In this document: piece after piece, positions 36,879 through 64,000 of the stretch | Position numbering within the stretch: position 1 is the stretch's first letter | Layout of the letters: every line of letters begins with the position of its first letter | Source: Escherichia coli | Lineage (GTDB): Bacteria; Pseudomonadota; Gammaproteobacteria; Enterobacterales; Enterobacteriaceae | DNA: 64,000 nucleotides | Strand: one strand, 5' to 3' | NCBI RefSeq assembly: GCF_044324875.1 | Contig: NZ_CP172185.1 | Program-made: the position numbers and the translations under genes | The notes under the pieces: generated by a model | What the model was told of the DNA's origin: nothing | Database searches by the model: none | The model's input: only the letters and a program-made list of their open reading frames with translations

Positions 36879-37065
36879 GGAGGGTACTACCTTCACTTCT
36901 ACCTCTGCCTCCCAAACTCCGTAAAACTCATGCACAATCACCATATTACAGTCAACCCGAACATTATGAGCTCCACTGAATTCTACTGTTCACCCCCTAA
37001 ATCAAGCATAAAATGGGGGCATATTTGGGGGCCCATTGTGTTCAGTCAGTTTCAGGAGCCCCCAT

Positions 37066-38253
37066 ATGGCACTTACAGCCAGACAAGTCGAAACAGCCAA
37101 ACCTAAAGACAAAGATTATAAACTCTCTGATGAACGTGGTTTATATCTGCTGGTAAAAACCACGGGAGCACGCTACTGGCGCTTTAAGTACAGGATAGCA
37201 GGAAAGGAGAAAAAACTGTCCTTCGGTGTCTATCCTGACGTCTCCCTTGCAGAAGCCAGAACCAAACGCGACGATGCAAGGAAAATTATCTCCGAGGGCG
37301 GTGATCCCGGTGAAAAGAAACGAAGGGAAAAACTCTCACAGAAAATCTCTGTCACCAACACCTTCCATGCTCTCGCAATCGAATGGCATCATCATAAATC
37401 TTTATCATGGTCTGACAGTTACGCCAGAAGCGTACTGGAAGCTCTGGATAAAGACGTTTTCCCGTATCTGAGCAACCGGAGCGTTACTGATATCCTTCCA
37501 CTGGAAATGCTGGAAATACTACGTCGAATTGAAAAACGAGGCTCTCTGGAAAAACTACGCAAGGTCCGGCAATACTGCAATCAGATTTTCCGTTATGCCA
37601 TAGCCACAGGACGAGCCACTGTCAATCCAGCCTCAGAACTGAGCAGCACGCTGGCGGCACCAAAAACCGCACATTTTCCCCATCTGAGAGCGGATGAACT
37701 TCCTGTTTTTCTCCGGAAGCTCGCTGACTATCACGGCAGTCCTGTCACTCGTATGGCTACAAACCTGCTGATTCTGACCGGGCTCAGAACGATTGAATTG
37801 CGACTGGCCGAATGGTCAGAAATTGATTCTAGCAACGCACTCTGGCATATCCCTAGAGAGAGAATGAAAATGCGCCGGCCTCATATTGTTCCTCTGTCAC
37901 GCCAGGTCATTTCTGTTCTGCAGGAATTACATGGTTTTACCGGACAGTATCGCCTTATGCTACCCGGACGTTGCGATGTAAACAAACCTATGAGTGAAGG
38001 CTGCATCAATATGGTGCTCAAACGTATCGGTTACGATGGCAGGGCAACCGGTCATGGTTTTCGTCACACCATGAGTACCATTCTGCACGAACAGGGCTTT
38101 AATTCTGCCTGGATTGAAATGCAGTTAGCTCATGTGGATAAAAACTCCATCAGGGGTACCTATAATCATGCACATTATCTCGATGGTCGCCGTAAAATGA
38201 TGCAGTGGTACGCTGATTACATTGATTCTCTTATGGGAAAAACGCACAAATGA
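37066..38253 (+). CDS. int: P4-type tyrosine integrase (phage/island integrase)
   Basis: MALTARQVETAKPKDKDYKLSDERGLYLLVKTTGARYWRFKYR… typical P4-like N-terminus; catalytic region HGFRHT…RGTYNHAHY; RBS CAGGAG upstream. Confidence 0.85.
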   Translation: MALTARQVETAKPKDKDYKLSDERGLYLLVKTTGARYWRFKYRIAGKEKKLSFGVYPDVSLAEARTKRDDARKIISEGGDPGEKKRREKLSQKISVTNTFHALAIEWHHHKSLSWSDSYARSVLEALDKDVFPYLSNRSVTDILPLEMLEILRRIEKRGSLEKLRKVRQYCNQIFRYAIATGRATVNPASELSSTLAAPKTAHFPHLRADELPVFLRKLADYHGSPVTRMATNLLILTGLRTIELRLAEWSEIDSSNALWHIPRERMKMRRPHIVPLSRQVISVLQELHGFTGQYRLMLPGRCDVNKPMSEGCINMVLKRIGYDGRATGHGFRHTMSTILHEQGFNSAWIEMQLAHVDKNSIRGTYNHAHYLDGRRKMMQWYADYIDSLMGKTHK

Positions 38254-38300
38254 AATAAACCATCCCCCACCAACTGCAGCGGTTGGTGGGGGCTTAACTG

Positions 38301-38639
38301 TTATTTTTTGATTTTTGCCTTCAGGCGTGTCCACAGGAAAATGCAAACTGCGGTATATACCCGTGTGATAAACAACAGTTTAAGGCTGAAATACTCTCCT
38401 GCCTCGCTGGCATTCGTTTCAAACATAGCGAAAAGAACACTCTGCGAGAACTCATGACTATAAATAAAATAATAACAGAGTGCTGTCAGTGACGTAGTCC
38501 AGAGAATAATACCGACAACCGCTGCAATAATTTTTATCCGTTCTGGAAAAAGAAACACGGGTATCCGCCACAGGGAGCTGAATAACAGTGAATCTCGTAT
38601 TCCATTTATTCCACCGTATCCGGTGCTGAAGATAATCAC
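38301..38639 (-). CDS. Hypothetical membrane protein (possibly a fragment), downstream of the glycosyltransferase
   Basis: 112-aa hydrophobic ORF; function not recognisable. Confidence 0.3.
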   Translation of the reverse strand: MIIFSTGYGGINGIRDSLLFSSLWRIPVFLFPERIKIIAAVVGIILWTTSLTALCYYFIYSHEFSQSVLFAMFETNASEAGEYFSLKLLFITRVYTAVCIFLWTRLKAKIKK

Positions 38640-38803
38640 CTGCAGCAGGGTGGAAAAGATAAAGTATCGCCCCCGTGCGCTCCGGCTGAAAGCAGGTCTG
38701 CTGTTTCCGGCATTTAAATGTATTGACCATCTCCCGGTAAAATGTAATAAATCCCCCGTTACCGGAAAACCGATGAACAGAATTCGGACAGAAAATGAGT
38801 TCC

Positions 38804-62030: not shown

Positions 62031-62258
62031 TCACACTGCCTGATATTCTGTATCATTTATCAGCATCGACCAGATTATTCTCGCGTATTTGTTAGCAATC
62101 TCCACAGTAGTTTTATTAAATTCGCGACTCTCCTTTAACTGCTTAACCCACTGATTTAGGTATACATCATTATTATTCGTAGCAACTCTAACGACAGCAC
62201 GGACGCCATGAATAAAAAGTGTTTGCAGATGCTTGTCGCCTTTTTTCGTTATATTCAT
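62031..62258 (-). pseudogene. IS110-family-like transposase C-terminal remnant
   Basis: …ITKKGDKHLQTLFIHGVRAVVRVATNNND…IANKYARIIWSMLIND. Confidence 0.4.
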
Positions 62259-62498
62259 GAGAACTTACCTGCAGCAACTCTAGTGCAGGCATGGAAGCAG
62301 ACCAAGCCATGCAGCACAGTGACGATCATTCTTAAATTCAGTGCCTTTGCCAATAATAACAGCAACAACGCTCGTGACAATTTCAGGACCAATGCCTTTA
62401 GCTTTTGCAATACGCTGACAGCATTCAGATTGCCTGGACAGGTCTCTATTTATTTATCAAAAAAGTTTATACTACGACCGAGATCGTTAAAGAGATCA

Positions 62499-63657
62499 TC
62501 TAAATAGCTGCGCCTAATACCACTACACTTTTGCCAGCCCATGTTTGCCTCCGGGGAACGGGCTGATGGTTTCCATAAAATGGCGAATTTTTTTCAACAG
62601 TTGCCACATTGAGCGGCACTGATGATTACGCGTTATTGTGTCGTGAAGTGCCTGCCATAGCCGTTCAACATGATTCACCCATGGCAAGTAAACCGGCTGA
62701 TAAATGACCCTGAACTTCGGGTTCTCCTTCAACCAGCGCTGTGTTTCCCGGCTTTTGTGGATAATGTAGTTGTCCACGATCAGTGTGATGGTTTTCACCC
62801 GAAGGTATGTCGCTTTAAGCCGCTTCAGCAGGCTGATGAACAGCGCCGAACTTTTGCTGTTGCCGCCCACATAGCTGACTTTACCTGTCCCGCTGTGCAG
62901 CGCTCCGGCCAGATCATATTTTTCATTCTGTCCCGGCGTGACCACCCGTTTTTGCTGTCCGCGCAGTTGCCAGTCCGCACCGATTTTGGGATTAAGATGG
63001 ATATCCACTTCATCTTCATAAAAGACCGGATGCTCTGTGCTGCATTCGTCCAGTGCTTTATGGATTGCTGCCATCTTTTCATCTTTATGCGGGTCACGGA
63101 TACGCAGAGTTGGCGCAGCCCTTCGCCACACAATCCCCGCAGACGGCAACCAGCGGCGAACGGTTCCGGCATTTAACTGGCAATCGGTTATCTCATTGAT
63201 TTTTATTGCCAGCAGTTCTGTACTCCAGCGTGAACGCTGGTAGCCAAAGTCGCCGGGAGAATGTTTTACCAGCTCACGTAACAGTGTGCAGATATGCTCA
63301 AACGACCAGAGACGGGCTCGCCCGGCAGGTAATGATTTCAGTCCCTCAACACCCGACTGCGTGAACCAGTTAATCCAACATCCAACAGAGGAACGGGCGC
63401 AGCAGAGCGTTCTGGCAACGTCGCTGACACGGTCGCCCCGGTGCAGCATCAGCATGGCAGTCAGTCTGCGGGCATAATTTTTATCGTGTGTTTTATGGAT
63501 GGCTTTCTGCATCAGGCGTCGTTCGTCACGGGAAATTGGTGCTATGATCGGCATTGCTCAGTCCGGTTGGTGATTTGTTTTGATTTGGCGATTGATCAGA
63601 TCGCACAATCCAGGCTGAGCTCCCTCAAAGTGATCTACTATTCCGCGCAGCTATTTA
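62499..63657 (-). mobile_element. IS630-like insertion sequence (IS630/Tc1-mariner superfamily), about 1.15 kb
   Basis: 343-aa transposase with terminal inverted repeats TAAATAGCTGCGCC…/…GCGCAGCTATTTA. Confidence 0.75.
62523..63554 (-). CDS. IS630 transposase
   Basis: MPIIAPISRDERRLMQKAIHKTHDKNYARRLTAMLMLHRGDRVSDVARTL…; 343 aa. Confidence 0.8.
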   Translation of the reverse strand: MPIIAPISRDERRLMQKAIHKTHDKNYARRLTAMLMLHRGDRVSDVARTLCCARSSVGCWINWFTQSGVEGLKSLPAGRARLWSFEHICTLLRELVKHSPGDFGYQRSRWSTELLAIKINEITDCQLNAGTVRRWLPSAGIVWRRAAPTLRIRDPHKDEKMAAIHKALDECSTEHPVFYEDEVDIHLNPKIGADWQLRGQQKRVVTPGQNEKYDLAGALHSGTGKVSYVGGNSKSSALFISLLKRLKATYLRVKTITLIVDNYIIHKSRETQRWLKENPKFRVIYQPVYLPWVNHVERLWQALHDTITRNHQCRSMWQLLKKIRHFMETISPFPGGKHGLAKV

Positions 63658-63912
63658 GTTCCGCTATCGTTCTGCACATACAAGCTTTTAACCCGTTTAT
63701 GCATCCTCAAGGCTCAGCAGAATAGCTGTCAGCGCCAATGATATAAGACAGTAATGGGGATGCGGACGATTTCCTGGACTCTCAGGAGATGAAACATGTT
63801 TACTGAAGAAGAAAAAATCCGCGCCATTGAGCTTTATTTCAAATATGTGACCCGTCCTGAATAGCGTTGACACGTTCCTACTTAAATCCGGAGAACGTAA
63901 TGATGACTTAGC

Positions 63913-64000
63913 TCAAACGCACCCAACGTGATTATCCTCTATCCTTTAAAATAGCTGTTGTTGAGCAGGTTGAAAAAGGCGAGATGACTTATAAACAGGC
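63913..64000 (+). pseudogene. IS3-family transposase OrfA-like fragment at window edge
   Basis: …LKRTQRDYPLSFKIAVVEQVEKGEMTYKQA HTH-like N-terminus preceded by an in-frame stop; runs off the window. Confidence 0.35.

Follow-up and report, generated by a model that had tools for sequence, protein, structure and literature searches.

A large share of the virulence genes of pathogenic Escherichia coli lies on islands that pair a P4-type tyrosine integrase with a tRNA gene, and how the integrases of such islands choose a target, or come to change it, is poorly defined. A location directly 3′ of a tRNA or transfer-messenger RNA (tmRNA) gene is usual, though not obligatory, for integrases of this type. 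Here we describe an island inserted between the core genes ynjA and ynjB of E. coli, which we call the ynj island and whose left part closes a 64,000-nucleotide stretch of contig NZ_CP172185.1 (assembly GCF_044324875.1); this stretch is referred to below as the window, and coordinates are counted from its first letter. The closest described systems are the genomic islands at the tRNA-Phe genes pheV and pheU (GI-pheV/pheU), among them PAI I-CFT073 and the GI-pheV of EC958, in which the integrase gene intP4 sits directly downstream of tRNA-Phe. In the ynj island, by contrast, the integrase follows ynjA, and the direct repeat is the 7-bp TAAGGAG rather than 19–23 bp of the tRNA-Phe 3′ end. We consider it probable that the ynj island is an element of the GI-pheV/pheU family in which the integration module has exchanged the tRNA-Phe 3′ end for the 9-bp spacer between ynjA and ynjB as its target. 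The repeats of GI-pheV islands, of 19 bp and 23 bp, have been described in a study that makes no mention of the ynjA–ynjB site (PMC11537424). Our literature search, which left most subscription-journal papers out of reach, turned up no study in which ynjA, ynjB or ydjZ is connected with an integrase or an island, and an earlier description is possible.

Targets other than tRNA genes are already known for tyrosine integrases, and islands at protein-coding genes include those of the dusA-specific integrases, SGI1 at trmE, GIsul2 at guaA and SXT at prfC. The ynj island resembles these in using a non-tRNA, gene-sparing target and in restoring the signals it interrupts, here the ynjA stop codon and the ynjB Shine–Dalgarno sequence. 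Their integrases, however, form lineages of their own with long-established targets, whereas the ynj integrase appears as a recent tRNA-Phe offshoot with tRNA relics in the attachment site of the element (attP). A second point of comparison is phage lambda, for which the work of Weisberg and co-workers on secondary sites and saf variants reportedly showed that identity between attP and the chromosomal site (attB) over a 7-bp overlap governs the target, and that a changed overlap redirects integration. Integration at a secondary site followed by excision with a new overlap is a known route in lambda. The saf variants are laboratory observations on a phage, whereas the change in the ynj island is fixed in a natural element of 72–99 kb, comes with divergence of the integrase and is known here from sequence.

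Results

The boundary of the island was located by megablast of window positions 35600–39000 against 5426 complete E. coli genomes. While 5423 of these are matched by the segment, only 29 are matched across the junction between ynjA and the integrase gene, and it is in these 29 that the ynjA–ynjB site is occupied by the island. The matches of island-free genomes end at position 36882, which is the ynjA stop codon TAA (36876–36878) followed by GGAG. ynjA itself (36330..36878, plus strand) is the last core gene before the island and is intact after the insertion, as seen from the list of open reading frames (ORFs), RefSeq relatives and comparison with K-12, in which ynjA and ynjB stand 9 bp apart (GGAGAGATG). 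Window positions 36883–64000 comprise the left 27 kb of the island, and the remainder lies past the window end. In relatives the far end adjoins ynjB: the island of strain SCU-115 spans ynjA to ynjB over about 90 kb, junction coordinates give sizes of 72–99 kb in complete relatives, and each of the 29 carriers has exactly one left and one right junction. The insertion splits the ydjX–ynjD gene cluster and may alter the expression of ynjBCD in carriers.

No tRNA or tmRNA gene was found by ARAGORN across the whole window, and no Rfam RNA family was matched in the junction region 36600–37300, either at the gathering threshold or at E ≤ 10; a promoter and terminator scan of the junction returned nothing exceeding shuffled expectation. 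The GC content of the island is a mosaic, ranging per kilobase over 0.32–0.57 against about 0.50–0.55 in the core. A first-pass annotation of the window had anticipated much of this picture, namely an island of at least 27 kb with a far boundary outside the window, the absence of a tRNA from 36879–37065, a compositional shift, a gene order downstream of ynjA that is not conserved core, and a second junction with a direct repeat to be sought elsewhere, which here is the ynjB-side junction with its repeat TAAGGAG. It had also placed the end of collinearity with K-12 at the ynjA stop codon (36878), which holds for the gene and falls four bases short of the exact point.

The empty site in K-12 reads CTGAAAAACGTTCT TAAGGAG AGATGATGCGCC and, in close view, in K-12 as in most genomes, CGTTCT TAAGGAG AGATGATG. 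The left junction in the window reads ...AACGTTCT TAAGGAG GGTACTACCTTCACTTC..., and the right junction in seven carriers ...TCTAGTTTTATTCC TAAGGAG AGATGATGCGCC..., so that the two junctions are identical over exactly TAAGGAG and differ on both sides of it. We assign the heptamer at 36876..36882 (plus strand) as the core of the left attachment site (attL), given the ends of the empty-site alignments, the same heptamer at the right site (attR) in the seven carriers and the register comparison set out below. TAAGGAG is made up of the ynjA stop codon and the ynjB Shine–Dalgarno sequence, and neither these signals nor either of the two ORFs is lost on insertion, in keeping with the earlier suggestion that the attachment site lies at the ynjA 3′ end or in intergenic DNA.

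Joining the two island ends yields an inferred attP, TTTTATTCC TAAGGAG GGTACTACC, which can be set against both its tRNA-Phe counterpart and its own target. Compared with the tRNA-Phe attP it is identical at 12 of 14 bases on the left and 15 of 20 on the right and at only 2 of 7 in the centre, where the Phe type has GAGTCCG and the ynj type TAAGGAG; compared with the ynj attB the relation is reversed, with 4 of 14 bases on the left, 7 of 7 in the core and 5 of 20 on the right. Tyrosine recombinases need identity in the overlap region, and since TAAGGAG is the sole block identical between this attP and attB, we infer that it is the 7-bp overlap in which the integrase exchanges strands. If so, the crossover of the Phe type would fall at GAGTCCG, the junction of the T-stem and the acceptor stem. 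Had the two recombining overlaps differed, the two junctions would be expected to carry different ones; because both junctions carry the attB-type heptamer, the incoming attP most likely already had TAAGGAG.

Outside the heptamer, both ends of the island are homologous to those of tRNA-Phe islands. At the left end the two align without gaps, tRNA-Phe ...GAGTCCG GGCACCAC TTTCACTTC with ynj TAAGGAG GGTACTAC CTTCACTTC, and homology with pheU–integrase loci starts at the CCA end of tRNA-Phe. The integrase-proximal att arm (36883..37065, plus strand), delimited by alignment with these loci, opens with GGTACTAC, the relic of GGCACCAC at the tRNA-Phe 3′ end, and is about 69–83% identical in nucleotide sequence to the pheU and pheV arms. 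At the right end, the last ~180–210 bp (query positions 32–237 at best) share 73–84% identity with the corresponding ends of GI-pheV islands, those compared adjoining kps or yghD. These islands end ...AGTTTTATTCC GAGTCCG GGCACCA, whereas the ynj island ends ...AGTTTTATTCC TAAGGAG, so that AGTTTTATTCC at the right and GGTACTAC at the left are all that it keeps of tRNA-Phe. Two TGGGGGC repeats upstream of the integrase gene (about 37002–37024) are conserved in pheU islands, and a GGGGCC...GGCCCC inverted repeat lies near the SCU-115 right end (~37503–37530 of locus L005, minus strand). Retained in ynj and tRNA-Phe islands alike, these repeats are candidate arm-type binding sites for the integrase.

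The integrase gene (37066..38253, plus strand) encodes an intact P4-type tyrosine integrase of 395 amino acids, as the first reading of the ORF had it, with the Pfam domains Arm-DNA-bind_3 (PF13356, 1.2e-27), Phage_int_M (PF22022, 2.9e-28) and Phage_integrase (PF00589, 6e-22); the NCBIfam profile PRK09692 gives a domain match at 2.6e-89, below its full-length cut-off. The catalytic motifs are TGLRTIEL (R241), HGFRH (H330, R333), LAHVD (H356) and RGTYNH (Y366), assigned by motif and not by structure, and all five residues are conserved in the pheU integrase. The protein is 100% identical in 27 and 99.8% identical in 2 of the 29 RefSeq carriers. Its allele adjoins ynjA, and not the 3′ end of a tRNA or tmRNA gene, in every one of the 29 copies in RefSeq and of the 10 further contexts examined; an assembly index lists this exact integrase in about 2600 blocks. 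A terminator-like hairpin, called by consensus scan only, separates the gene from the cargo (38264..38292, minus strand).

The nearest integrases are encoded 20 bp downstream of a tRNA-Phe gene (pheU or, in strain 702/18, pheV) and are 85% identical at the nucleotide level, the upstream arm included, with 89% amino acid identity to the pheU integrase. Among 5.8 billion proteins no cluster was found that lies closer than the E. coli Phe type (89%), and the next one after it, in Lelliottia, is at 80%. Identity to the Phe type is unevenly distributed along the gene: it is about 87% over most of its length and falls to 60–67% at 37839–37958, corresponding to amino acids ~255–299 around an RMKMRR hairpin. 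This is the segment that we take to surround the beta-hairpin lysine contacting core DNA in lambda Int, and the diverged patch is a candidate determinant of core recognition. None of the best 120 homologues is closer than 70% in that segment, and no donor for it was found among them. Conversely, over 120 bp (38019–38138) the gene has 100% identity with its pheU and pheV counterparts, which suggests gene conversion between co-resident paralogous integrases; several carriers also have Phe-type integrases elsewhere in the genome, at 2–5 places per record.

The edges of the island and the core that flanks them differ in how much they vary between carriers. In 18 carriers, made up of the window itself, seven genomes from RefSeq and ten other assemblies, a single haplotype accounts for the leftmost 1371 bp of the island, against ten in the final 300 bp of ynjA, and pairwise differences in this left flank come as near as 19 bp to the heptamer, with core divergence reaching 5.7%. 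On the right side, compared in seven carriers, 1 of 307 island columns is variable as opposed to 51 of 552 core columns, the first of the latter lying 3 bp beyond the heptamer. Where the adjacent core of two genomes diverges by 0.9–5.7%, their island DNA shows 0–3 differences in 2.1 kb. Because the step at the heptamer is sharp on both sides, and flank recombination would bring donor flanks with it, the pattern indicates independent integrase-mediated insertions, that is, repeated site-specific integration and not a single accident. The count of independent acquisitions rests on the flank haplotypes. Carriers occur among poultry and human isolates.

Two carriers mark the extremes of flank divergence. 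In strain 24A16CRGN010 the ydjZ–ynjA flank departs from the window at 5.7% of positions (73 of 1283), unusually high for E. coli core DNA, next to an identical island edge, while assembly GCA_027946735.1 (contig JAQJIY010000051.1) matches the window without a difference over 1317 bp of flanking core and 1371 bp at the island edge and is probably of the same lineage.

The cargo was named from the RefSeq annotation of 99.9%-identical relatives and from NCBIfam profiles; some genes were placed by coordinate transfer from an annotated relative (offset +25500), and NRZ14408 and SCU-115 were aligned directly to the window. The mosaic content read in the first-pass annotation is matched by these sources, and its count of at least six insertion sequence (IS) elements or remnants rises to at least eight in the window's part of the island. 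Its description of the island as decayed fits the cargo, in which about 17 of the 29 annotated genes are pseudogenes, and not the integration module, which is intact and near-invariant among carriers.

Following the integrase, RefSeq and NCBIfam identify an N-terminal remnant of a CptA-like phosphoethanolamine transferase (38301..38723, minus strand; NF012179 positions 22–131 of 556, a RefSeq pseudogene), pseudogenes of a GT4 glycosyltransferase (38804..39749, minus) and a polysaccharide deacetylase (39749..40569, minus), and a C-terminal fragment of the YebF family (41597..41770, plus). In some carriers an IS1 lies about 0.3–1 kb downstream of the integrase (loci L023, L025, L028 and L032, positions ~3000–3900), where the phosphoethanolamine transferase and GT4 genes are called in others, and the left cargo module is thus variable. 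Next come an intact ORF for a cytochrome b562 homologue (42268..42657, minus; RefSeq annotation, with NF011632 below its curated cut-off), an IS5-family remnant known from RefSeq relatives (42955..43535, minus), an N-terminally truncated ssb remnant (43693..43989, plus; TIGR00621 positions 47–125 of 165) and a PerC-family regulator (44007..44327, plus; RefSeq WP_001066120.1, with no NCBIfam match). Coordinate transfer places a ProQ/FinO fragment with an IS66 TnpA pseudogene at 44403..45215 (plus), and a solute-binding protein fragment (ugpB in the first-pass annotation; in RefSeq, extracellular solute-binding protein), an ABC ATPase pseudogene and a permease fragment at 45142..47506 (minus).

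An IS21-family element with istA and istB (47723..50363, minus; NF033546 and NF038214 above cut-off) is visible also as an alignment gap: its 2.64 kb are missing at that position in NRZ14408 and SCU-115, and coverage of window 39001–64000 is only 89% in each of the 25 best RefSeq relatives. A reading of the same interval as a more intact ABC transporter was rejected, NCBIfam showing istA and istB. The element interrupts the PhoX-family phosphatase gene (50364..52227, minus; named from RefSeq, with no NCBIfam match) about 115 bp short of its end, displacing its last ~38 codons and replacing the PhoX C-terminus. Transposase remnants, an SgcJ/EcaC oxidoreductase gene (54563–55015, minus) and an IS3 remnant occupy 52870..55639 (RefSeq, NCBIfam), followed by remnants of integrating conjugative element genes TIGR03755, TIGR03756 and TIGR03757, all broken (55914..57748, minus; RefSeq, NCBIfam). 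The siderophore receptor and adhesin gene iha is intact (58682..60769, minus; RefSeq, and NF010012 at 1538.7 bits against a cut-off of 924), and the window closes, by comparison with RefSeq relatives, on transposase remnants, an IS630 (62523–63554, minus) and the start of an IS3 pseudogene (61720..64000). Past the window, the island of relatives carries amiC, ibrAB, sodC, sitABCD, iucABCD–iutA and a YadA-like adhesin gene, and it ends on the right in a CP4-type module.

Over window positions 43011–64000 the sequence matches, at 99.8–99.9% identity, a segment of a pheV-located island found in strain 702/18, among others. Because the cargo is this similar but the integration modules are only about 85% identical, cargo appears to pass between pheV- and ynj-located islands. 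In size, strain specificity, virulence genes (by annotation only), integrase, 7-bp repeats and GC content the element has the attributes of a pathogenicity island; it does not have those of an integrative conjugative element, as no type IV secretion system gene set is annotated across the 90 kb.

In the core region of the window, two inverted IS3-family copies of 1310 bp (15255–16564 and 33847–35156), 99.7% identical and each with an ALIL frameshift pseudoknot (Rfam RF01497), interrupt chbG and ydjY relative to NRZ14408. They flank 17 kb of core genes, which recombination between them could invert or remove. This pair, outside the island, is the sole repeat in the window, and no internal duplication was found in the island. 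The core also has a match to the Rfam small RNA family ES036 (CssrF) at 22867–22909, with 38.9 bits against a gathering threshold of 37.6.

Discussion

By comparing both ends of the ynj island with its empty target and with tRNA-Phe islands, our work points to an integration module that has kept its arms and exchanged its crossover. Judged on sequence, the island clearly derives from the GI-pheV/pheU family, though without the adjacency to a tRNA and without the tRNA-derived repeat. The two share an integrase at 89% amino acid identity, homology of both att arms, a CP4-type right-end module (antirestriction, JAB/RadC-like, YeeU/CbtA and DUF4942 genes) and a modular, IS-rich content with virulence cargo, part of which is 99.9% identical to that of one GI-pheV. 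They differ in the replaced 7-bp centre of attP and in the diverged integrase patch at amino acids ~255–299. No tRNA would be expected at the junction, because on this reading the element descends from a tRNA-Phe island in which only the central heptamer was swapped.

We suggest that a tRNA-Phe island integrated at the secondary site between ynjA and ynjB and was excised with a new overlap, as in lambda, and that its integrase then diverged, mainly at about amino acids 255–299. The resulting island would be, or recently have been, mobile, entering new hosts by integrase-mediated recombination of attP with attB. Its transfer between cells would depend on a helper element, which we propose because the island's own conjugation genes are broken, and its cargo (iha and, past the window, sitABCD, iucABCD–iutA and ibrAB) would be exchanged with GI-pheV islands by homologous recombination. 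Whether this amounts to a natural and still active retargeting of an integrase, with a swap of the attP crossover heptamer followed by localised change in the protein, is to us an evenly balanced question.

Several observations weigh against this reconstruction. The arms of attB barely resemble those of attP (4/14 and 5/20) and TAAGGAG alone is a common heptamer, so a heptamer with poorly matching arms leaves the source of site uniqueness unexplained. A search for the excised attP junction gave no full-length match among the 5426 E. coli genomes and no match among viral or metagenome contigs, and the carriers in that search each show exactly two half-matches, with neither an excised attP nor a tandem island; because no such junction was found, excision and current mobility can only be inferred. 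Complete transfer machinery is absent from the window and from SCU-115, where only the broken TIGR03755, TIGR03756 and TIGR03757 genes occur, and there is no clear excisionase, the sole candidate being a 78-amino-acid helix-turn-helix protein outside the window with a weak excisionase-family match. Finally, no integrase of 99.8%–85.5% nucleotide identity was found in the E. coli genomes, which leaves no intermediates between the ynj and Phe forms and makes the secondary-site origin a historical inference.

The alternative that survives best, though we regard it as unlikely, is that a tRNA-Phe island integrated at this secondary site once, by accident, and has since spread only through homologous recombination in the flanking core (transfer like that from high-frequency-recombination strains, or transduction), its integration module unused. 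The E. coli high-pathogenicity island is an established case of spread by flank recombination, and the dissimilar attB arms, the heavily decayed cargo, the broken conjugation genes and the lack of an attP circle would all fit such a history. Recombination tracts would carry donor flanks, however, whereas the flanks of the carriers differ within 19 bp of the heptamer on the left and 3 bp on the right, beside near-invariant island edges. Moreover, a heterologous crossover should have left the Phe overlap at one junction, whereas both have the attB type, and the integrase ORF is intact and 99.8–100% identical among carriers. Much less probable still is an origin by transposase or illegitimate recombination, with TAAGGAG a target-site duplication and the integrase a passenger: the many IS elements of the island are in its favour, and a 7-bp duplication is compatible with some transposons, but the duplication is bordered directly by att arms of GI-pheV type, whose register with the tRNA-Phe core is exact, neither junction has an IS end, and the position of insertion is identical in every carrier. 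That the DNA between ynjA and ynjB is ancestral and was deleted in most E. coli, a view to which the several backgrounds of the carriers might lend themselves, we give next to no chance, as it is already contradicted by an island far less divergent than the adjacent core, by an empty site that in thousands of genomes is a tight operon junction with one heptamer copy, by island ends homologous to GI-pheV att arms and by the mosaic GC content.

Retargeting of a GI-pheV/pheU-family module to the ynjA–ynjB spacer is thus the reading we retain. Non-tRNA targets of tyrosine integrases are already known; what is of value here is a natural pair of att sites differing in one heptamer, together with the evidence that the ynj site has been used repeatedly. 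The ynj and tRNA-Phe islands form a matched natural pair with the same att arms, 89% identical integrases, and different central heptamers and targets, in which target choice is directly testable. A practical consequence is that island finders relying on a tRNA plus an integrase would miss, or wrongly bound, an element of 72–99 kb with iha, sit and aerobactin genes. If our reading is correct, the so far undefined crossover of GI-pheV/pheU integrases would map to GAGTCCG, and the determinants of target choice by P4-type integrases would be narrowed to 7 bp of DNA and about 45 residues of protein.

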